Shown here in pieces: positions 7,554 through 60,421 of a DNA stretch of 64,000 nucleotides. Each line of letters opens with the position of its first letter. Position 1 is the stretch's first letter. The notes under the pieces were generated by a model that made no database searches, had not been told where the DNA came from, and saw only the letters and a list, made by a program, of their open reading frames with translations. The translations under genes and the position numbers were made by a program. This stretch comes from Acidocella sp. (GTDB lineage Bacteria > Pseudomonadota > Alphaproteobacteria > Acetobacterales > Acetobacteraceae): the NCBI GenBank assembly GCA_027451225.1, contig DAIDJU010000189.1, forward strand, positions 8,289 through 72,288, read 5' to 3'.

Positions 7554-7874
7554 TCCCCCCTCACACGCCTTCCGCGCAAGAGCAAATTATCGCTTGTGCA
7601 CAAACACATCAGCCTGGATTTCTAACGACCAGAAAACAAATGAACGCCTAAATAAAGATGCATAAACAAACCAAGAATTACTCTGATCACGATTAATTTA
7701 CACCACAAGAAATCAACGAATATTTTAAAAATATCACTGATGAATCCTAAGCCTTATCGTTATTGACACTGAATCAATGTTACAGTGTTTTTCGGCACGT
7801 TACATTTTCTTCATTGTCAAAAATCATCATGCCCCATAGTTAACTCAACTCGCTCGAGGACGCGGGGCATCATT

Positions 7875-9980
7875 ATGTTAGATTTTTTATACGAGCATAT
7901 CTCCGCCTTTTTATCCAAGCTCACCACCTCCCGGCGCGCAGGCATCGCGATGATGTTTGCCCTGAGCATGCCTATGCTTTTGGTGGTTACAGGATTGAGC
8001 GTAGATGTCGGCTACTGGTACCAGAACCAGACGGCACTGCAATCGGCGGCCGACGCGGCAGCCATGGCGGCGGCCATGAATGATTCCCGCCTTGGGCAGA
8101 GCACCAATGACAGCAAACGCCAGGCGGCTCTCCCTTACGCCAAATCCATGGCCGACGCCGCGACCAACCAGCAATTCGGTTTTGTCAGCGGCACGCCTGG
8201 AACTTCGCTTACGCTTGCCGCCAATATCGGCTCGGCGCAGACCGTCAACAGTGCGAGCGTCACCACGACAACCTACACGGCCACGGCCTCCGCGCCGCGC
8301 CCGGCCTTTTTCTCGTCTGTCAGCGGCCCTGGTTTCCAAGGGTTAAGCGCCGGCACGCAAAGCGCCAGCGCAACAGCCTCTCTCCTGACCACCACTTCGA
8401 ACAGCAGTGGCGGATGCCTGATAACACTCGGCACCACCGGCACCGACATTTACCTGACAGGCGGCGCCAAGATCGACGCCTCCGGCTGCACCGGCACCGG
8501 TATCGTCTCCAACTCGACATCCTCCTGCAACAGCAGCACCGGCACGGGATCAATCTCGGTCAACCCCTCGGCCACCATCGTCACCTCGTCGGTTGAGTCC
8601 GCCGGCTGCGTGTATGTAAACACCAATGGCGGCGCCAAGATCGTTAACGCCTCGGGCGGCGGCGCCAGTTACAGCACGGGCAGCGGCGCCGATCCCTACG
8701 CGACCCTCGCCGCCGCTGGTTTTCCCAAATGGCCAAGCCAGCCAAGCCAGCCGAGCCTCAGCAATACGGTCGCAACCTCGGCTTTTTCTCTTGGCTATGT
8801 GAAATCCTATTCCTACGCCTATGCCGGTTGCAGCCCCGATTACGCGGCACAATGCTGGCTCTACCCGTATGAGTTCAGCGGCGCCCTCAACCCCAATGTC
8901 GTCTCGCTCGAGTTGCGTGACGGCAGCGATGCCTCCAGTTACGATTCCACCTACGTGTTCACCAGCGGCTTCAAAACCAGCAACGGCACGCTGACCTTCG
9001 ACAGTACAAGTTCTATCCCCGCCACCTATTATTTCCAGGGTGCCACCAGCACCAAGAAGAACGTCACGACTCTCTCCGGCTACGGACTGGAACTCAGTTC
9101 TCCCACCATTACCTGGGGTAAGGGGGGCGTGTATTACTTCAATGGCGGCTGGGCGGTCGATGGCAGTTCCCCCACCATGACGGTGGGTACCAGCACCATG
9201 CTCTCCACCGCTTATAGCGGTGCCTCCAACGGCGCCACCTATCTGCAGGAAGGCAATATCACCTTCGGCGGCGGCACTTACTACTTCGATGGCGGGCTGG
9301 TGATCGGCGGCAGCGGCAACGTCACCTTCGGGCCGGGCATCTATTACATCGTCAACGGCCCCTTTTCCGTAACCAATGGCGGCACGCTCACCGCCAATGG
9401 CGCCACCTTCGTGCTCGAAGGCACATCCTATTATGCCTTCAACGGCGGCACCAACCTCACACTCTCAGCTCCCGTGGCTAACAGCGCCACCAACCCCACC
9501 AATTGCGTGCTGCCCTTCTCCTCCGGCAGCACCACGGGCACGCCCTATCCGCAAACCACCTACGCGATCGACAATACCCTCGTCACAGCCACACCGACTT
9601 ACGGCACGCCCATCACCACCAATGCCGGCTCCGGGTATCCGGGCAAGCCGTACCCGTGGGATGGCACTAACGGCAAAGGCATTTGCGGCGTACTGATTTA
9701 CCAGACACCGACCGACAGCTCGACCGACTACATCACCGAGGGCACGACCAACACGGTCAATGGCATCATCTACACCCCGGCAGCGGCACTCACCATGTCC
9801 GGCGCAGGCTCCATGAAGGCCGGCACCAATTCCGACGGCACAGCCGGAACACTTGCCATCATCTCCAACAGCATCTCGCTCACGGGCAGCGCCAACCTCA
9901 CGCTGTCCACGGGCTCCAGCACCTCGAATTACGGCCTGAGTTCCTCGACCACCACCAGCCAGATTCTGCTGACAAACTGA
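7875..9980 (+). CDS. TadG-like large minor pilin / putative adhesin (701 aa)
   Basis: RRAGIAMMFAL..SVDVG..LQSAADAAAMAAA Tad N-terminus; Ser/Thr/Gly-rich body with repeated GxYY motifs. Confidence 0.8.
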   Translation: MLDFLYEHISAFLSKLTTSRRAGIAMMFALSMPMLLVVTGLSVDVGYWYQNQTALQSAADAAAMAAAMNDSRLGQSTNDSKRQAALPYAKSMADAATNQQFGFVSGTPGTSLTLAANIGSAQTVNSASVTTTTYTATASAPRPAFFSSVSGPGFQGLSAGTQSASATASLLTTTSNSSGGCLITLGTTGTDIYLTGGAKIDASGCTGTGIVSNSTSSCNSSTGTGSISVNPSATIVTSSVESAGCVYVNTNGGAKIVNASGGGASYSTGSGADPYATLAAAGFPKWPSQPSQPSLSNTVATSAFSLGYVKSYSYAYAGCSPDYAAQCWLYPYEFSGALNPNVVSLELRDGSDASSYDSTYVFTSGFKTSNGTLTFDSTSSIPATYYFQGATSTKKNVTTLSGYGLELSSPTITWGKGGVYYFNGGWAVDGSSPTMTVGTSTMLSTAYSGASNGATYLQEGNITFGGGTYYFDGGLVIGGSGNVTFGPGIYYIVNGPFSVTNGGTLTANGATFVLEGTSYYAFNGGTNLTLSAPVANSATNPTNCVLPFSSGSTTGTPYPQTTYAIDNTLVTATPTYGTPITTNAGSGYPGKPYPWDGTNGKGICGVLIYQTPTDSSTDYITEGTTNTVNGIIYTPAAALTMSGAGSMKAGTNSDGTAGTLAIISNSISLTGSANLTLSTGSSTSNYGLSSSTTTSQILLTN

Positions 9981-22330: not shown

Positions 22331-22344
22331 TTGATTCAGATCAA
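22331..22344. promoter_or_regulatory. FNR/FixK-type box upstream of hydrogenase operon
   Basis: Perfect TTGAT-TCAG-ATCAA. Confidence 0.85.
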
Positions 22345-33973: not shown

Positions 33974-33987
33974 TTGATTCACGTCAA
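33974..33987. promoter_or_regulatory. FNR box upstream of hemN, overlapping the cysK stop
   Basis: TTGAT-TCAC-GTCAA (one mismatch). Confidence 0.8.
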
Positions 33988-35074: not shown

Positions 35075-36418
35075 TTAAGCAGCCCTGAATTCTCTCCCGC
35101 GCCCATTGAGACGGGCCCGCAGCCCCGCAGGCAGCTGGCGGGCGGATTTGGCGCGAGGGTAATCCATCTCGATGATCGGCTCCACCGGGGCGGAGCGCTC
35201 ATCCCAATTATGGAAGTTCATACGGTCGATATTATCGACGAACGACTCCGTCGGCGCGCCCTCGGCCAGCAACAGCTCATGCGCCTCAAGCTCGACATGA
35301 TAATAGTTGAAGGCCTCAGGCACGTCATGCTCGCGTGTGATGCCGGGGCAACCAACCAGCGCCGAAGCCTGCACCAGAATACCGTCGAGGAACATGGCAT
35401 GATCCGGCGAAACCAGCAGGTCACGCACAGGCAGGTTATCACCCAGTGCCCCGGCGGCGATGCGGATGGGGAATGCACGCAGCGGATCGGCGAAAACGGT
35501 GGAAACGCGGCTCACGCCGAGCCAGCGGACCTCCGCCACACGGCCATCGGCCAGGCGCAGACGAGTACCAGGCACCACATCCTGCACCTCGATCTCCCCA
35601 TCCTCGGCGGCAAGGCGCGTGCCAGCGCAGAAGCAGGGATAAGTGTACCCGGAAGAGGTCGAAGTCAGCGCGATGGTGTTGGAGGTGGAGGTGTTGTTCC
35701 ACCCCGTCGTCCCGGCAGCCAGCGTAACGGTGCCCAAATTGCTGCCGCCACTGCTGGCGTTCGACAGCTCATATAGCGTCTGGCCGCTGCTGTTGGTTTT
35801 GCCGGTATCGATCAGGTAGAGCGTCTGACCGCCTTCGCTGATCGTATCGCCATACGTAAAGTTCTGGAGCGTCAGCCCTGAAGTCCATTGGGGGATAGAA
35901 AGCAGGTTACCAGTGCCCGAAAACACGATCGTGGCCGAGGGACCGCTGCCGGTAAACGTCAAGGTCGCGGAACCGCCAAGCGTCACAGTGCCGGAACCGC
36001 CGATCGGAGAATTGTCGGTGAGGCTGGTGCTGGTGAGCAGCAGGTTCTGCCCCGAAGCCAGCGTCAGCGTGCCGGAATTGGTGACCGTGCCACCGGAAAT
36101 CGTCGCGGTGCCCGTACCGGACATCGTCAGATCGCTGGACAACGTGGTGTTGGATGCCAGTTTGATCGTCGACCCGGCGTCGATTTCCAAAGCTGTTGTC
36201 GCCGAAAGCGTGTAGGCGCCGGAGAAAGACACTGTCGCGCCATTTGTAATGGTCAGACTGGCAACATTGGCGCTGCTCGTGAGTACAACCGTGGCGCTCG
36301 TGTTGAATGCATACACATTGCCGTTATTGCCCGGCGTCGTATTCGGGCTCCAGTTCGTCGCCAGGCTGAAGGTCGTACCGTCACCAGCGCCAGTCCAATA
36401 TACCGTAGCCACAAACAT
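35075..36418 (-). CDS. Hint_2 (BIL-type) domain protein with Thr/Ser/Gly-rich beta-repeat N-terminus
   Basis: PCFCAGTRL..VRWLG..LLVSPDHAM..YYHVELEAHELLLAEGAPTES; start may be GTG 36412 given AAGGAG spacing. Confidence 0.88.
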   Translation of the reverse strand: MFVATVYWTGAGDGTTFSLATNWSPNTTPGNNGNVYAFNTSATVVLTSSANVASLTITNGATVSFSGAYTLSATTALEIDAGSTIKLASNTTLSSDLTMSGTGTATISGGTVTNSGTLTLASGQNLLLTSTSLTDNSPIGGSGTVTLGGSATLTFTGSGPSATIVFSGTGNLLSIPQWTSGLTLQNFTYGDTISEGGQTLYLIDTGKTNSSGQTLYELSNASSGGSNLGTVTLAAGTTGWNNTSTSNTIALTSTSSGYTYPCFCAGTRLAAEDGEIEVQDVVPGTRLRLADGRVAEVRWLGVSRVSTVFADPLRAFPIRIAAGALGDNLPVRDLLVSPDHAMFLDGILVQASALVGCPGITREHDVPEAFNYYHVELEAHELLLAEGAPTESFVDNIDRMNFHNWDERSAPVEPIIEMDYPRAKSARQLPAGLRARLNGRGREFRAA

Positions 36419-54061: not shown

Positions 54062-55018
54062 TCAAGGCAACCACAAAATATCGGCGATCCGCTGCGCGCC
54101 CGTGGCCAGCATGGCCAGCCGGTCGAACCCCAGCGCGATGCCCGAACAGACCGGAAGCGCTGCCACGGCGGCAAGGAACTCCTCATCCATCGGCCAGTCC
54201 TCGCCATACAGGGCATGCCGCCGCGCGCGGTCGGCGATGAAACGCGCCCGCTGCTCCTCGGCATCCGTCAGCTCGACGAACGCGTTAGCCAGCTCGATGC
54301 CGCAAACATACAGCTCGAACCGCTCCGCCACGCGCGGGTCATCCGGGCATTTGCGCGCCAGCGCCGCCTGGGCGGCGGGCCAATGGGTCAGGAAGGTCGG
54401 GCGCTCGCGGCCCAGATGCGGCTCGATCCGCTCCAGCAGCAGGCGGAAGAACAGATCCTCCCAATCCTCGCCCTCGCGCAGTTTCGCGCCAGCCTGGGCG
54501 GCCAGGGCGGGCGCGTCATCGGCGGTGGCCAGTACATCGGCGCCCACATAGCGCTGGAAGGCCTCGGCCACGGTGAGGAATTCCGGCTCGTCCAGCCGGG
54601 TGGTGATGCCCCGGCACGTGACCTCGGGCGGCAGGGTGGCGCGCAGGAGGGCGAAGGTTTCGTCCATCAGCGCCTGCATGTCAGCGCCCAGCGAGTACCA
54701 TTCCAGCATGGTGAACTCAGGGGCGTGGGTGTCCGACCATGGTTCGTCGCGCCAGACGCGGGCGAGCTGGAAGATCGGCCCGGAGCCGCCCGCCAGCAGC
54801 TTCTTCATGGCGAATTCAGGCGAGGTGTTCAGCCATTTATCGCCCGCCGGACGGGCGCGCAGATGCACCTCCTCGCCGGGCGCCGCCACGGCGTAAGGGG
54901 TTTCCACCTCGGCATAGCCGCGCGCGGTGAAGAAGGCGCGCACGGCGGCGGCCAAGCGCTGGCGGCGGAGGAGACGGGGAAAACGGTCGGGCAGTGTCTG
55001 CCAGGGTTGAGAGCGCAT
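54062..55018 (-). CDS. epmA: EF-P beta-lysylation ligase (GenX/PoxA)
   Basis: LNTSPEFAMKKLL, HAPEFTMLEWY, ELANAF, GIALGFDRL. Confidence 0.93.
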   Translation of the reverse strand: MRSQPWQTLPDRFPRLLRRQRLAAAVRAFFTARGYAEVETPYAVAAPGEEVHLRARPAGDKWLNTSPEFAMKKLLAGGSGPIFQLARVWRDEPWSDTHAPEFTMLEWYSLGADMQALMDETFALLRATLPPEVTCRGITTRLDEPEFLTVAEAFQRYVGADVLATADDAPALAAQAGAKLREGEDWEDLFFRLLLERIEPHLGRERPTFLTHWPAAQAALARKCPDDPRVAERFELYVCGIELANAFVELTDAEEQRARFIADRARRHALYGEDWPMDEEFLAAVAALPVCSGIALGFDRLAMLATGAQRIADILWLP

Positions 55019-55041
55019 GGCGCACGTTCTACATCACGCCG

Positions 55042-56010
55042 ATGCCGGATGGTATTTCTCCCAAACCCCGCACGCTGCGCCGCCCCGACGAGCTGGCCCG
55101 CGCCGGGCTGCTGCCCCAGAACCGCGTCGCCGAGGCCGAGGCCGTCGCCGCGCGCTACGCCATTGCCGTGCCGCCAGCGCTGGCGGCACTCATCGAGTCG
55201 CCGGACGATCCGCTGGGGCTGCAATTCATCCCCAGCGCCGCCGAGCTGATCACCGCCGCGCATGAGAGCACGGACCCCATCGCCGACGAAGCGCTTTCGC
55301 CCATCCCCGGCATCGTCCACCGCTACCCGGACCGCGCGCTGCTGAAGCCCCTGCTGGCCTGCCCCGTCTATTGCCGGTTCTGCTTCCGGCGCGAGCAGGT
55401 GGGGCCGGATGGCGGGGTGCTCTCGGCCGAGGCGCTGGAGGCGGCCTATGCCTATGTCGCGGCGCATCCTGGCATCCGCGAGGTGATTCTGACCGGCGGC
55501 GACCCGCTGATGCTCTCCCCGCGCCGCCTGGGCGAAATGCTGCGCCGGATGGAAGCCATTCCGCATGTGGAGCTGCTGCGCATCCATAGCCGCGTGCCGG
55601 TGGCCGATCCGGCCCTGGTGAACGAGGCGCTGCTGGCGGCGCTGGAGATCGAGAAGCCACTCTATATCGCGGTACACAGCAACCATGCGCGGGAGCTGAC
55701 GGCGGAAGCGACGGAAGCCTGCCGCAAACTCTCGCGGCTGGGTATTCCGCTACTGGGCCAGACCGTGTTGCTGGCAGGCGTGAACGACAGCGAAACGGCC
55801 CTGGCCGATCTGTTCCGCGCCATGCTGCGCGCACGGATAAAACCCTATTACCTGCACCAGCTGGACCCCGCCCCCGGCACCGCGCGCTTCCATGTGGAAC
55901 CGGAACGCGGCCGGGAGATCCTGCGCAACCTGCGCGGCAAGATCAGCGGCACGGCGTTTCCGACTTATATCCTCGATCGTCCCGGGGGGCTGGGGAAAGT
56001 GCCGCTGTAG
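55042..56010 (+). CDS. epmB: Lysine 2,3-aminomutase for EF-P modification
   Basis: HRYPDR, CPVYCRFCFRR, LTGGDP, PYYLHQLD. Confidence 0.92.
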   Translation: MPDGISPKPRTLRRPDELARAGLLPQNRVAEAEAVAARYAIAVPPALAALIESPDDPLGLQFIPSAAELITAAHESTDPIADEALSPIPGIVHRYPDRALLKPLLACPVYCRFCFRREQVGPDGGVLSAEALEAAYAYVAAHPGIREVILTGGDPLMLSPRRLGEMLRRMEAIPHVELLRIHSRVPVADPALVNEALLAALEIEKPLYIAVHSNHARELTAEATEACRKLSRLGIPLLGQTVLLAGVNDSETALADLFRAMLRARIKPYYLHQLDPAPGTARFHVEPERGREILRNLRGKISGTAFPTYILDRPGGLGKVPL

Positions 56011-56158
56011 GAGGCAACGCTCCACTCTGGACACAGACCGCCGCACTGAAACGAAAACCTCACGGCCGCGTCAGGCGCAGCCCTCCCCTCTTCCGTCCAG
56101 AGACGTGAATATGCCAAGCTCATTTTAAAGCCCCTTCAAGTAAGAGCGGAGTTATGCG

Positions 56159-57061
56159 GTGAATGAAATACACGCCCCCATAGTCACGTATATGGGACAA
56201 TCTGTTTCTGTACGAACCAATGAAACAGTGCTCAACGCTCTCCTCAGGGCTGGGATTGAGGTGCCGTTTTCCTGCAAGGCTGGCAGCTGCCACACATGCT
56301 TATTGAAATGCCTGGAAGGCGACCTCCCTGAGCGGACACAACGCGGCCTCTCCGAAAGTTTGCGGGCCAAATCTTACTTCATGCCTTGCCGATGCAAGCC
56401 TGCGGGCGACATGCATCTGGCCCCCGCCAGTGCAGACGATCTTCTGACCGAGGAGACTGGCGCTCCCCCTCTGCCTGAAACCCCGCCCGCGACAGGCCCC
56501 GCGGCCCCAGAAATCCCCTACCCGGACACCGACCCCGCCCTATGGATGGAGCTGCAACAAGGCGGCGACAAAGTCCGAAAAGTTTTAGAAGATTTCTACG
56601 ACATGGTCTACGCTGACGACCAGCTCGCCCCCTTCTTCGATAACGTTAAAAAAGAACATGTAACCGACAAGCAATACACGTTTATGAAACGCTGCCTGCT
56701 CGGAGAAAAAGTCTATTTTGGCAATCGCCCGCGCAATGCCCATCACTGGATGATCATCTCAGATGAATTGATGGATCACCGGCAGGCGCTCATGCTGAAA
56801 GCATTGCTTGCAAATGGGCTCACCCAAGATCAAGTCGATCGCTGGGTACCTTTCGAGGAACATTTCCGTGGCGACATCGTCAAAAAAGAGACCTGGCCTA
56901 AACGCGTTGGCGACCAGGATGTCGCCTTCGAAGGGTTTGGCCGAGAAGTTTTTTCGATAGATTTAATATGTGATTATTGCCACTCCGAAATCCCCGCCGG
57001 CACCAGCGTGGTGGTGCATCATCGCCGTGGACTTGTGAGCTGCCCCAGCTGCGCCGGCTGA
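56159..57061 (+). CDS. [2Fe-2S] ferredoxin - truncated globin - Cys4 ribbon fusion protein
   Basis: C39-x4-C44-x2-C47..C77; FYDMVYADDQLAPFF..KQ..RNAH; CDYC..CPSC. Confidence 0.8.
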   Translation: MNEIHAPIVTYMGQSVSVRTNETVLNALLRAGIEVPFSCKAGSCHTCLLKCLEGDLPERTQRGLSESLRAKSYFMPCRCKPAGDMHLAPASADDLLTEETGAPPLPETPPATGPAAPEIPYPDTDPALWMELQQGGDKVRKVLEDFYDMVYADDQLAPFFDNVKKEHVTDKQYTFMKRCLLGEKVYFGNRPRNAHHWMIISDELMDHRQALMLKALLANGLTQDQVDRWVPFEEHFRGDIVKKETWPKRVGDQDVAFEGFGREVFSIDLICDYCHSEIPAGTSVVVHHRRGLVSCPSCAG

Positions 57062-57086
57062 ACACTTCTAAATAGCGCAACCCTTG

Positions 57087-57105
57087 GGGGGCTTGATAAG
57101 CCCCC
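57087..57105. terminator. Hairpin between convergent genes
   Basis: GGGGGCTT-GAT-AAGCCCCC; no clear T tract. Confidence 0.5.
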
Positions 57106-59618
57106 TAAAACCGCGCCGAAACCGCCGCCTCCAGGCTCTGCGCCGACCAGTTGCCCGAAAAGCGGCCGTTATAGCCGATATCCAGCGCCCAATCGCCCCT
57201 GGCCATGCGCAGCCCCACCCCGGCTACGCCGGAAACCGGCGACAATCCCTGCGGGTTGAGGGCGAAGGCCGTGCCGTCCTGCGTGCTCAACCCCAACTCC
57301 GCGCCAGGGTTGCCCAAACTCCCCTCGACGCCGAAGGTAACGCGCGGGGTGATGACGATATGTGAAGCCGTAACATAGCTGCGCCCCAGGTTCAGGTGCA
57401 GGAACGGCGTGACCGTGGTGCCGGATGACGCGCCGCCATTCAGCGCGAAGGCCTGTTGCGCGGCCCCTTCCGCCAGCCCGCCCATGGCCACACGGGTTAC
57501 ACGCAGCCCGGCGGCGGGGCTGATCTCCCAGCCCTGCCACGCCAGCGGCAGCGCCGCCTGCGCCGCGATGGAGAGTACATTGCCAGTCTCCCGCGCCACC
57601 GCAGCGCCCGCGCCCGTCTGGCGGGTGGTGTTGGCGTTCACGATGCCGTCCAGCACCGCGGCACTCAGCACGAACGCCCCCACCGGCTGGTTGGCGTAGA
57701 GGCCAAGGCGGACCGTCTCCAGATCGGCGGTTCCCGTGCCTTTGCCGCGCAGGGCGGCGTCGTCATACCCGGCGGCCAGGCCGATCCGCCCACCTGTCGC
57801 GGGGATGGCGCGGTCCACACCCGCCAGGAATCCGCCGCCGGTCATGTTGAAGCCATCGGTGGCGAGGTTGGAGCCCGCCGCCTCCACCCAGCCGCCGGCG
57901 GCGCAGAACCCGCTGGCGATGGCCGAGGCGATCCCCGCCTTGCCGCCGCCCTGGGCCGGAATGTTCTTGCACCCCGCCCCCGCCCCTGGCGCCATGGCAT
58001 GGCCGAGCAGCAGATCATCCATGGTCTGGGCATCCAGCGTCATGGCCTGGGAGAGGTCGGGCAGCAGCCCCGCCCCCTGCGGCGCCACGGTGAAGTTGCT
58101 GTTCACCAGCAACCGCGCCGCCAGCGGACTCATGGAGAGGGAAAGCGGCTGCACGCCTTGCTCCACCTGGGCGAAACTGCCGGTCAGCCCGCCATCGGCT
58201 TCCAGAAACTGGTAGCTCGCGGGGGTATAGGTGCCCGGCGCCAGCACATAGGTAAGCGTGCCGCCCAGCTTGATGGTGCCGCTGACGGTGAAGCTGGAAA
58301 CCTGCCCAGGCTCCACCAGCACCACGAGCGCGCCGGTGTCGCTCTGGGTAAAATTACCGTTCAGCCGCAGCGGCGCGGTGGCCAGCCCGGCGGAGAAGCT
58401 GCCGTTATTCACCATCTGCGCCACACTCCAGGTGCCGGTGCCCGCCCAGGCCGCGCCTTGCGCCACGGTCAGCGACCCGCCATTGGAAAAGCCGGTAATG
58501 CCGGTGGCCAGCGTGCCGTTGCCGGTGAGCGAGATGCTGCTCGCCGTGCCGTTGCCTGCAATATCGCCACTAATCTGCGCCCCGGTGCCGAGCGTGATGC
58601 TGCTGGCCCCGCGCGAGAGGCTGATGGCGTTGCCGCCCCCAGTGGCGATGACGCTGCCGGTATCGACGATCTCCACCGCGCCGTTGGCGATAATGCCGGT
58701 CGCCCCGGCGATGGTCCCGGCATTGTTCAACGTGTCGCCCTTGGTCAGCCTCACCCCGGCGGCGGCACCGGTGATCAGCCCGGTATTCTCCACCACCCCG
58801 CCGCGCCCGGTATCCACCACGCCGTCGATACCACCCGCGATGGTGCCGCTATTGCTGACCGAGGACGCGCCGGTGAGATACACACCAAAATCCGGCCCGC
58901 TGATCAGCCCGGCATTGGTGATGCGCGAGCCGTCGCCCCCCGCATACACGCCGGAATACCCGCCCAGCAGCCGCCCGGAGGCGGTGTTGGTGAGCGAGCC
59001 GCCGGAATAGAGCGAGACGGCATCGCCCGTGCTGGCGGAAATCTGGCCGCTATTGGTCACGCTGCCCAGACCATTGCCCGTGTAAACGCCAATATGCCCG
59101 CCAAAGATGCTGCCGGTATTGGCAACGCTGCCGCCGCGGTTGAGGCTGACGCCATCGAACCCCGCGCTGATGCTGCCGCTATTGCTCACCTCGCCAGCCC
59201 CGCCATTCACCACCACGCCGTAGCGCGTGGCGCTGATGCCGCCGCTATTGGCCACACTGCCCGCCGCCCACATCTCCACCGCGTTATGGCCCGAGACGCT
59301 GCCGGTATTGCTCACACTGCCGCCCGCCCCCAGCCAGATGCCCGCGCCATTGGCGTCCCGCACCTGCCCGGCATTGCTGAGCTGGGCTGGGCTCATGTCC
59401 CACAGCGCCGCCCAGCTCTGGCTGCTCACGGTCACGCCGCTGGCGATGCTCACCCCCGCATTGCCATATCCAGCGAGGTTCACCGGAGCGTAATGGCTGG
59501 TGGAGATCACGCTCTGCGCGGCGGCCGGGGCGGCGAGCCCCATGGCGGCGGGCAGAACCAGCAGCGGCGCAGCGGCGCAATGGCGCGCCAGGGCAATGCC
59601 GGTGGAGGACGTGTTCAT
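57105..59618 (-). CDS. Type Va autotransporter, beta-helical adhesin-like passenger
   Basis: Signal peptide, repeated SVxNxGxIxG units, C-terminal barrel ending AAVSARF. Confidence 0.85.
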   Translation of the reverse strand: MNTSSTGIALARHCAAAPLLVLPAAMGLAAPAAAQSVISTSHYAPVNLAGYGNAGVSIASGVTVSSQSWAALWDMSPAQLSNAGQVRDANGAGIWLGAGGSVSNTGSVSGHNAVEMWAAGSVANSGGISATRYGVVVNGGAGEVSNSGSISAGFDGVSLNRGGSVANTGSIFGGHIGVYTGNGLGSVTNSGQISASTGDAVSLYSGGSLTNTASGRLLGGYSGVYAGGDGSRITNAGLISGPDFGVYLTGASSVSNSGTIAGGIDGVVDTGRGGVVENTGLITGAAAGVRLTKGDTLNNAGTIAGATGIIANGAVEIVDTGSVIATGGGNAISLSRGASSITLGTGAQISGDIAGNGTASSISLTGNGTLATGITGFSNGGSLTVAQGAAWAGTGTWSVAQMVNNGSFSAGLATAPLRLNGNFTQSDTGALVVLVEPGQVSSFTVSGTIKLGGTLTYVLAPGTYTPASYQFLEADGGLTGSFAQVEQGVQPLSLSMSPLAARLLVNSNFTVAPQGAGLLPDLSQAMTLDAQTMDDLLLGHAMAPGAGAGCKNIPAQGGGKAGIASAIASGFCAAGGWVEAAGSNLATDGFNMTGGGFLAGVDRAIPATGGRIGLAAGYDDAALRGKGTGTADLETVRLGLYANQPVGAFVLSAAVLDGIVNANTTRQTGAGAAVARETGNVLSIAAQAALPLAWQGWEISPAAGLRVTRVAMGGLAEGAAQQAFALNGGASSGTTVTPFLHLNLGRSYVTASHIVITPRVTFGVEGSLGNPGAELGLSTQDGTAFALNPQGLSPVSGVAGVGLRMARGDWALDIGYNGRFSGNWSAQSLEAAVSARF

Positions 59619-59854
59619 GGAAGGTGATCCTTGGGCCGGGCGGCTTTTTGCAACCCTTCACAACTACAGGCTGACTTCAGCCTAGAACCGCACCGGTGAA
59701 TGGCGCGTTAATCTCCCGGCCTCCCCCAACCGGAATCGCTATTTTCCCGTTAACCTTTGGGCCGCGCGCCTGGGGGTGGCTTGCCCAAATCGCCCTGGCG
59801 GCGTAAGCCCGCGCCTCACGATCATTCAAGTTTTCAATCGGCAGGGCATAACCC

Positions 59855-60421
59855 ATGAAGCAGCAGGCTAACCTTATCCGCGCCGGGCAGGTCATCGAAC
59901 ACGAGGGCCAGCGCTGGACCGTGCTGAAGCAGCAGATCATCACCCCCGGCAAGGGCGGCGCCTTCATCCAGGTGGAAATGCGCAACCTGAAGACCGGCAA
60001 CAAGACCAACGAGCGCTGGCGCACCGCCGACACCGTCGAGCGCCTGACCACCGAGGACCGGGACTTCACCTATTCCTACACCGATGGCGAGAACCTCGTG
60101 CTGATGGATCCCGAGACCTTCGAGCAGTTCATGGTTCCTGCCTCCATCCTGGGCGAGTCCGCGCCCTTCCTGCAGGACAACATGGCCGTCATCGTGGCGC
60201 TGGTCGAAGGCGATCCGGTCGGCATCACCCTGCCGCCGCAGGTGACGCTGGAAGTCGTCGAGGCCGACCCGGTGGTGAAGGGGCAGACCGCCTCCTCCTC
60301 CTACAAGCCCGCCAAGCTCTCCAACGGCGTGAAGACGCTGGTGCCGCCCTTCATCGAGGCCGGCGAGCGCATCGTGGTGCGCACCGAGGACGGCAGCTAC
60401 GTGGAACGCGCCAAGGGCTGA
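59855..60421 (+). CDS. efp: Elongation factor P
   Basis: TPGKGGA (Lys-type loop), SSSYKPA, VPPFI. Confidence 0.96.
   Translation: MKQQANLIRAGQVIEHEGQRWTVLKQQIITPGKGGAFIQVEMRNLKTGNKTNERWRTADTVERLTTEDRDFTYSYTDGENLVLMDPETFEQFMVPASILGESAPFLQDNMAVIVALVEGDPVGITLPPQVTLEVVEADPVVKGQTASSSYKPAKLSNGVKTLVPPFIEAGERIVVRTEDGSYVERAKG

Follow-up and report, generated by a model that had tools for sequence, protein, structure and literature searches.

What reduces truncated haemoglobins in vivo is a long-standing question, and most of these proteins are, to our knowledge, single-domain polypeptides with no known partner. A gene at positions 56159-57061 of a 64,000-nucleotide stretch of Acidocella sp. DNA (contig DAIDJU010000189.1; the whole stretch is hereafter called the window) raises this question directly, because it encodes a 300-residue protein in which a plant-type [2Fe-2S] ferredoxin domain (Fer2) is joined to a group I (N-type) truncated haemoglobin (trHb) and to a C-terminal module with four cysteines (Cys4). 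What does the ferredoxin domain do for the globin? After analyzing the homologues, predicted structures and gene neighborhoods, we suggest that the protein is a stripped-down member of a bacterial family whose longest members would carry a full NAD(P)H-to-haem chain in one polypeptide. We assign a probability of roughly 0.5 to the reading that it is a soluble redox haemoprotein, with the [2Fe-2S] domain serving as the built-in electron entry for a b-type haem in the globin. We infer the cofactor loading, the direction of electron flow and the substrate from sequence.

A sequence-only reading of the window had proposed the architecture of ferredoxin, truncated globin and Cys4 module, and this was borne out by Pfam, by the folds and by the conservation of the ligands. 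At the N-terminus, Pfam PF00111 (Fer2) matched residues 13-81 (E 5e-14, 52.3 bits versus a cut-off of 21), and the best Protein Data Bank (PDB) sequence match was ferredoxin 1iue (E 8e-12). We built an AlphaFold2 model on 120 homologues (mean predicted local distance difference test score, pLDDT, 88.6), and Foldseek aligned its ferredoxin domain, a beta-grasp fold, with more than 40 plant-type and cyanobacterial ferredoxins at template modelling (TM) scores of 0.7-0.82. The ligand pattern C39-x4-C44-x2-C47-x29-C77 is invariant in the 120 homologues, and the domain is predicted to carry a [2Fe-2S] cluster. Two further cysteines are at least 90% conserved family-wide and are not canonical ligands: C51 (56309-56311), four residues past the third ligand, and C79 (56393-56395), two residues past the fourth. 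Disulfide formation, alternative ligation and cluster tuning are candidate roles for them.

The globin part is equally recognizable. Pfam PF01152 (Bac_globin) matched residues 135-227 (E 2e-8, 34.9 bits versus a cut-off of 21), and the best PDB sequence match was Chlamydomonas THB1 (4xdi, E 1.4e-9), with Mycobacterium tuberculosis HbN (1idr) also matched. The model predicts a 2-on-2 alpha-helical fold with a pLDDT of 92-98 over most of the domain, and Foldseek placed it on Paramecium trHb 1dlw with a TM score of 0.89 and a root-mean-square deviation of 1.8 A, and on 1idr with a TM score of 0.81; the globin fold assumed from the sequence thus passed both the Pfam cut-off and, as a predicted structure, the comparison with 1dlw. 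An ungapped alignment to HbN assigned F146/Y147 to B9/B10, F160 to CD1, V168 to E7, K171/Q172 to E10/E11 and H195, in RNAHH, to F8, and the GG motif is G135-G136. The alignment confirmed residues that had earlier been assigned by hand (GG, FY at B9-B10, F at CD1, KQ and the proximal His). H195, Y147, F160 and Q172 are invariant in the 120 homologues, and Lys E10 is conserved. The domain is predicted to hold a b-type haem, and the protein is a bona fide member of both the Fer2 and the group I trHb superfamilies. The F-helix motif RPRNAHHWM (residues 190-198, 56726-56752), which includes a second His (H196) and Trp197 beside the proximal His, is near-invariant in the family and differs from the corresponding region of other N-type truncated haemoglobins.

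The relatives suggest what the ferredoxin domain was once connected to. A word-indexed search returned 181 relatives, and a scan of one genome per species found them in at least 276 species genomes, which is not the rarity that had been implied. They occur in Acetobacteraceae, Comamonadaceae, Marinobacter, Thiohalomonadaceae, Gallionella, Kangiella and Wenzhouxiangella, and in a few Cyclobacteriaceae and Myxococcota. From full open reading frames (ORFs) reconstructed in 80 genome loci and then aligned, we defined an XL form of about 520-550 residues (Fer2-FAD_binding_6-NAD_binding_1-trHb-Cys4), which is the most diverse class; an L form of about 370-400 residues (Fer2-degenerate FAD barrel-trHb-Cys4), from which the NAD domain is gone; the S form of about 280-325 residues to which the window's protein belongs (Fer2-linker-trHb-Cys4); and an XS form consisting of globin and Cys4 alone (for example the 203-residue protein of locus L085). 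The suggestion that the Acidocella protein might be the cut-down version of a longer protein with a reductase was therefore upheld by the survey of homologue architectures, since relatives of about 520 residues carry FAD_binding_6 and NAD_binding_1 between ferredoxin and globin and those of about 380 residues carry a degenerate flavin adenine dinucleotide (FAD) barrel. In the alignment, the linker of the window's protein (residues 96-122) occupies the site of the FAD barrel, with or without the NAD domain, of the L and XL relatives.

All four Pfam domains of the XL form (Fer2, FAD_binding_6, NAD_binding_1 and Bac_globin) score above their cut-offs, the motifs RSYS(L/I)AS and GTGTGL(S/A)P are present, and its reductase part gave matches to Fer2-FAD-NAD reductases of the PRK05713, BenC and MmoC types (E 4e-53 to 1e-37, below the equivalog cut-offs). 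In the L form, Pfam found no FAD_binding_6 match in the insert even at E values up to 10, and the alignment shows no RxYS flavin motif. We nevertheless regard the insert as a degenerate FAD barrel because of fold comparison and NCBIfam: it is confidently predicted as a six-strand barrel plus helix, together with Fer2 it matched BenC 1krh, GcoB 5ogx, CarAd 7c3a and T4moF 4wqm in Foldseek (E 3e-12 to 3e-10, about 195 columns), and PRK05713 covered Fer2 and half of the barrel (E 1e-20). An exhaustive HMMER search of 1.84 billion 50%-identity clusters with the globin-Cys4 part gave 76 representatives at E values up to 1e-30. When representatives were classified with hidden Markov models derived from the family, 87 carried the globin-Cys4 pair: about 30 XL, about 20 L, 9 S and 19 with globin and Cys4 only, many of which are probably fragments. 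In a neighbour-joining tree built from the globin-Cys4 core, the S forms nest at separate places, some inside L clades (the clade of the window's protein among them) and others inside XL clades; the tree is distance-based and midpoint-rooted, and the direction of change has to be inferred from it. Because of this separate nesting, repeated loss of the flavin/NAD module with retention of the ferredoxin is the most economical reading, and the S form would have arisen several times.

The family carries automatic database names only ('2Fe-2S iron-sulfur cluster-binding protein' and 'ferredoxin/truncated hemoglobin YjbI'). The full-text literature yielded no experimental characterization and no paper on the Fer2-trHb fusion, the XL form or the gene cassette described below, a search that did not extend to subscription-only globin censuses, where a passing mention is possible; the architecture is thus not an already characterized family as far as this literature goes. 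The 'novel hemoglobin' of Acinetobacter (PMC11836069) was considered as a relative and rejected, being an unrelated flavohaemoglobin derivative. Two other observations came out of the searches. In Corticibacter populi, a separate single-domain Bac_globin gene of 149 residues (locus L008, 6729-7178) stands behind a two-component system, 0.8 kb upstream of the Fer2-trHb gene (an L form), so that one neighborhood holds two truncated globins. The representative search also met very large proteins in which truncated-globin stretches are repeated in tandem 5-12 times and which bear no relation to the Cys4 family (P0158, 1882 residues; P0214, 1386 residues; and P0237, P0241, P0227 and P0228).

Overall, these architectures suggest a putative mechanism. 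In BenC/MmoC-type reductases, electrons pass from NAD(P)H through FAD to the [2Fe-2S] centre, which is the exit toward the acceptor. In the XL proteins, the same sequence would continue to the haem on one polypeptide, and we read the ferredoxin domain as the electron entry to the haem because the fused haem is the only candidate acceptor. The window's protein would stand at a reduced end of the series, its flavin and NAD module lost; its electrons would therefore have to come from a reductase encoded elsewhere, possibly an unlinked enzyme of the ferredoxin-NAD(P)+ reductase (FNR) type. The Fe-S domain would reduce the haem, and the reduced haem, in its TyrB10/GlnE11 pocket, would bind O2. A pocket of TyrB10, GlnE11 and PheCD1 serves O2 stabilization and nitric oxide (NO) dioxygenation in HbN. 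The haem might then either turn over NO or report the O2, NO or redox state. Should the protein act as an enzyme, its most likely chemistry would be turnover of the NO dioxygenase type, and the ferredoxin domain would re-reduce the ferric haem in each cycle. An electron path from Fe-S to haem had been proposed from the sequence alone, and it stands as the best-supported mechanism, since the FAD/NAD-bearing relatives make such a path the natural reading. The NO, O2 or sulfide chemistry that was put forward along with it stays conjectural. There is also precedent for a trHb served by an FNR-type donor: the nitrate reductase-trHb fusion NR2-2/2HbN of Heterosigma and the trHb-ferredoxin reductase operon of Legionella likewise couple N-type trHb to such a donor and have been interpreted as NO dioxygenase systems (PMC3820574). 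Their partners, however, are a Mo-cofactor/cytochrome b5/FAD nitrate reductase or a separate reductase gene, with no ferredoxin domain and no Cys4 module.

The family can be compared with several other known systems. With the N-type truncated haemoglobins of M. tuberculosis (HbN), Chlamydomonas (THB1), Tetrahymena and Paramecium, it shares the 2-on-2 fold (TM 0.81-0.89) and the Gly-Gly motif, TyrB10, PheCD1, LysE10, GlnE11 and HisF8. Those proteins are single-domain and use separate reductases, whereas in the window's protein the globin shares one polypeptide with a [2Fe-2S] ferredoxin before it and a Cys4 knuckle after it, and its family adds the RPRNAHHWM motif and a conserved PxPDPALW segment before helix A. 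The logic of the XL relatives, a globin fused to its own FNR-superfamily reductase, is also that of the flavohaemoglobins (Hmp/FHP), and the Hmp reductase PRK13289 is a weak match for the reductase part of XL (E 6e-21). However, Hmp has an N-terminal 3-on-3 globin, a C-terminal reductase and no Fe-S centre, whereas the XL form has a 2-on-2 globin preceded by an N-terminal reductase, with a [2Fe-2S] centre in the chain; the window's protein has no flavin/NAD module at all. Globin class, domain order and the extra Fe-S centre rule out flavohaemoglobin membership. By sequence and by fold, the XL and L forms match Fer2-FAD-NAD reductases best (BenC, MmoC/MMOR, T4moF, GcoB and CarAd; PRK05713). What they have in common with these is a plant-type Fer2 at the N-terminus with an FNR-type barrel after it and, in XL, the NAD domain. 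These reductases feed a separate oxygenase, whereas in XL and L the acceptor trHb is fused, and the form found in the window has its FAD and NAD domains deleted. The window's protein matches PRK05713 through Fer2 only (residues 10-89, 62 bits versus a cut-off of 338), and it is not a complete BenC/MmoC/PRK05713-type reductase, since FAD_binding_6 (RxYS) and NAD_binding_1 (GxGxGxxP) are missing.

Several observations weigh against an Fe-S-fed enzyme. No NO-related gene, NsrR site or FNR box adjoins the window's gene. The repeated loss of FAD and NAD domains suggests that high-flux, self-sufficient catalysis is dispensable, and a sensor would fit this at least as well. The predicted TM score of the short-form model is 0.63, and the packing of its domains is uncertain. 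Finally, the gene setting in 58 of the 80 genome loci looks like signalling and not like detoxification. In these loci, the Fer2-trHb gene is the last member of a co-oriented, conserved cassette that encodes a hypothetical protein, a small Ras-like GTPase (ATP_bind_1, Ras and Roc matches), an ABC-type ATPase (ABC_tran) fused to a DSP/PTP phosphatase, a 134-residue protein with 63-93% identity across classes and, before the Fer2-trHb gene, a Roadblock/LC7 protein (Robl_LC7), sometimes with two further weakly Roadblock-like proteins. The cassette accompanies S, L and XL forms alike, and there is a 4-base overlap between the Polaromonas globin gene and the Roadblock stop codon. Small GTPases are regulated by proteins of the Roadblock kind, and the cassette appears to be an undescribed proteobacterial G-protein-type system. 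PADLOC matched only its generic ABC-ATPase part (mad3) and nothing system-specific, and a defence-system reading was set aside on that account.

As for transcriptional control, a Crp/Fnr-family neighbour was present in 3 of the 58 cassette-positive loci. FNR-type boxes (TTGATCTGGATCAA; TTGATCCCAATCAT) stand at the cassette head in L012 (4527) and L035 (4585), and none was found at the cassette head in the other cassette loci examined. In the window itself, perfect FNR/CRP-type palindromes (TTGAT-N4-ATCAA) occur at 22331, 27947 and 32309, and one with a single mismatch at 33974; none of them is near the globin gene.

This setting gives rise to a different reading, which we consider possible though clearly less probable than the electron-entry reading: the protein may be a haem-based sensor of O2, NO or redox state and not an enzyme, acting as the input or the redox-gated partner of a switch made of the Ras-like GTPase plus the Roadblock/LC7 protein, together with the ABC-ATPase/DSP-phosphatase. 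The Fe-S domain, and in XL also the FAD/NAD domains, would set or read the redox state of the haem, and Cys4 would dock the partners. The position of the cassette directly upstream in 58 of the 80 genome loci, with the globin gene overlapping or abutting the Roadblock stop codon, fits a sensor, as does the best PDB sequence match, THB1, together with the conserved Lys E10; THB1 is Lys-His hexacoordinate, a feature common among sensing and switching globins. Precedents exist in the globin-Roadblock fusion HGbRL (PMC4476040) and in the actinobacterial G-protein systems, whose accessory P450 CvnE has been proposed as a sensory input (PMC13343842), and the relatives' gene parallels them in being contiguous and co-oriented with Roadblock/LC7 and Ras-like GTPase genes. 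The parallel has its limits: the HGbRL globin is 3-on-3 and the haem fold of CvnE is a P450, whereas this family has a truncated globin. The relatives' loci also hold no detectable histidine kinase (CvnA) or DUF742 protein (CvnC) of the conservon set, with an ABC-ATPase/PTP instead. Since the relatives' loci offer only Roadblock and Ras-like GTPase of this set and the window none of it, conservon membership was rejected; membership in the globin-coupled sensors was rejected as well, because the globin belongs to the truncated type and carries no fused output domain, be it MCP, GGDEF, kinase or Roadblock.

The window itself speaks against a sensor, since no cassette component was found in its 64 kb or beside the three closest relatives (L014-L016). 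The Acidocella copy would then be an orphan sensor with partners encoded elsewhere, or would have been re-purposed. Moreover, the full NAD(P)H-FAD-FeS chain of XL is more than sensors usually need, and no output domain is fused. Cassette linkage nevertheless favors sensing at least as much as detoxification. We tentatively entertain, at the same low level of confidence, that the family is an undescribed class of self-sufficient truncated haemoglobins and serves as the O2/NO/redox input of a proteobacterial GTPase/Roadblock/phosphatase switch, with the Acidocella protein as a horizontally transferred, reductase-less orphan; such a switch might be a Gram-negative counterpart of the actinobacterial G-protein systems with an accessory P450.

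The C-terminal module bears on whether a third centre takes part. Its predicted beta-strands have a pLDDT of 79-95, and its two CxxC knuckles, C271-x2-C274 and C295-x2-C298, are kept family-wide (in the 120 homologues C271 and C274 never vary, and C295, C298 and H287 reach at least 90% conservation). No profile reached its threshold: Zn_ribbon_9 scored 20-21 bits versus 29.1 at residues 271-298, TRASH 13-17.5 versus 27 and DUF6510 12.6-17.2 versus 26.4, and the weak matches were TRASH, L24e, FYVE, LIM, RING and generic Zn ribbons. The label 'three-cofactor' fusion given by the sequence-only reading was therefore not borne out, as the module resembles generic Zn knuckles (TRASH, L24e, FYVE and LIM). 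A three-centre electron wire, in which Cys4 would bind iron in a rubredoxin-like manner or another redox-active or sensed metal, for electron transfer or metal sensing, strikes us as improbable. The four Cys and His287 are kept in all architectures, the module always accompanies the globin, even without Fer2 (trHb-C4 forms), and TRASH, a predicted metal-binding domain, is the commonest weak Pfam match (13 of 33 members), all of which would suit a metal with a function of its own. However, none of these matches reaches a curated threshold, and those listed are structural Zn sites. Rubredoxins have the hallmarks CxxCG and CPxCG with flanking aromatics, which are not visible in the consensus CDxC...SCxxCA; no rubredoxin family or structure was among the matches listed for the module, and the rubredoxin reading is not supported on this ground. 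Most probably, the Cys4 knuckle serves as a structural Zn site, packed against the globin or docking it.

All of this presupposes that the ferredoxin domain is made. The database product for the window (P0004) is a 216-residue protein that starts at Met85 (56411-57061), from which the ferredoxin domain is removed, and the full 300-residue sequence has no record in the protein collection searched. We compared the gene with its Acidocella aromatica orthologue, WP_183267371.1 (295 residues), which is annotated from the same GTG; RefSeq also holds a 284-residue version of this orthologue that probably starts at the equivalent of internal Met12. The ratio of non-synonymous to synonymous substitution rates (dN/dS) is 0.09 over the whole gene, 0.074 over residues 1-84 and 0.077 over the globin, so that Fer2 and globin are under strong purifying selection; the linker, at 0.36, is under relaxed constraint. 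Because of the low ratios over the whole gene and upstream of Met85, we regard the gene as functional and the ferredoxin part as translated. It is very unlikely that only a globin-knuckle protein is made from Met85 and that the ferredoxin-like region is an untranslated relic of a foreign gene, although the 216-residue form is the sole product on record and trHb-C4 proteins without Fer2 do exist (L085). The 84 residues in question show 26.5 synonymous versus 8.5 non-synonymous changes, all four cluster ligands are intact, a Shine-Dalgarno-like GGAG precedes the GTG, and initiation at Met85 would fall within the ferredoxin fold. The 216-residue call is a start-site error judged by the substitution pattern upstream of Met85 and the annotation of the orthologue, which identify the GTG at 56159 as the real start; by cutting the gene short, the source annotation of the window conceals the ferredoxin domain.

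The origin of the gene can be read from its composition. Its ORF has a G+C (GC) content of 54.8% (0.50-0.61 in 300-nt windows, 0.50 in the globin part) versus a window mean of 65.6%, and GC at third codon positions (GC3) is 0.60 versus 0.84-0.93 in four flanking genes. A low GC content had been noted before, and the direction was right, but the range then given (38-50%) was overstated. The A. aromatica copy has a GC3 of 0.71, also below the GC of its own genome. Between the two species, flanking proteins are 88-99% identical and the globin protein 85%, and the synonymous divergence (dS) of the globin gene is 0.83, two to three times that of the flanking genes. The earlier suggestion of foreign origin fits this atypical composition, and the elevated dS and the GC3 of the A. 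aromatica copy are consistent with an older acquisition from a lower-GC donor, with amelioration still under way. The same low GC3 and high dS, and the position between the functionally linked epmAB and efp, as if inserted, might be taken for a decaying, horizontally acquired gene with no current function. The probability of this is in our view negligible, since the reading frame is intact, every ligand is kept and the same locus is found in A. aromatica, and the dN/dS of 0.09 rules out a pseudogene or relic.

The surroundings of the gene are conserved as well. The order epmA, epmB, globin gene, convergent 837-residue autotransporter gene and efp is the same in the window and in A. aromatica; an Acidocella copy that is more distant (66% identity) occupies another locus. 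The EF-P modification genes epmA and epmB are thus split from efp by the low-GC globin gene and the autotransporter-like ORF (54062-60421), and epmA and epmB lie on opposite strands, with an overlap of 25 bases between the listed 5' ends of their ORFs. In the intergenic comparison with A. aromatica, the GTG start and its flanking bases are kept, and a block upstream of them (Table 1) is the sole well-conserved stretch, which makes it a candidate promoter or operator; a sigma-70 consensus scan found no promoter near the globin gene. Downstream, a hairpin with an RNA folding energy of -24.2 kcal/mol (z = -3.9 versus shuffles) is likely a bidirectional terminator. Having no T-run, it escaped the consensus terminator scan. 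The two other lowest-GC stretches of the window are 7785-9980 (+), a 731-residue Ser/Thr/Gly-rich protein with, by eye, a TadG/TadE-like N-terminal membrane segment, and 35075-36418 (-), a 447-residue Thr/Ser-rich protein whose C-terminal half looks, again by eye, like Hint (intein-like).

Table 1. Coordinates of the Fer2-trHb gene, its parts and signals in the window, and of the cassette in relatives' loci
Feature	Residues	Position	Strand	Remarks
ORF Fer2-linker-trHbN-Cys4 knuckle		56159..57061	+	complete, 300 residues plus stop; GTG start
Upstream block CCAGAGAC(G/A)TGAATATGCCAAGC		56097..56119	+	23 nt, 40 nt before start codon; candidate promoter/operator
Shine-Dalgarno-like GGAG		56148..56151	+	7 nt 5' of GTG; read from sequence
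Plant-type [2Fe-2S] ferredoxin domain	1-95	56159..56443	+	Pfam, PDB, Foldseek
Cluster ligand codon	C39	56273-56275	+
Cluster ligand codon	C44	56288-56290	+
Cluster ligand codon	C47	56297-56299	+
Cluster ligand codon	C77	56387-56389	+
Pro-rich low-confidence linker	96-122	56444..56524	+	pLDDT 50-73; dN/dS 0.36
Group I (N-type) truncated haemoglobin domain	123-245	56525..56893	+
Proximal His codon (F8)	H195	56741-56743	+
C-terminal beta-rich Cys4-knuckle module	246-300	56894..57058	+
Knuckle Cys codon	C271	56969-56971	+
Knuckle Cys codon	C274	56978-56980	+
Knuckle Cys codon	C295	57041-57043	+
Knuckle Cys codon	C298	57050-57052	+
11-bp GC-rich hairpin		57084..57108	none	between globin gene and convergent autotransporter gene
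Cassette, locus L005		4474-10169		cassette also in 58 of loci L014-L093
Cassette, locus L011		4699-9865
Cassette, locus L012		4585-10089

To the question of what reduces a truncated haemoglobin, the family gives a genetic answer: the donor would be a plant-type [2Fe-2S] domain, and the fullest forms fuse a whole NAD(P)H-FAD-FeS chain to the globin. With such a fusion, electron transfer to a 2-on-2 haem within one molecule can be measured directly on one recombinant protein, and the series of XL, L, S and globin-knuckle forms provides a natural domain-deletion set. Additionally, the tight association of the gene, in many Proteobacteria, with a cassette for a Ras-like GTPase and Roadblock proteins draws attention to a signalling system, so far unstudied, of which a redox haemoprotein would be a component.

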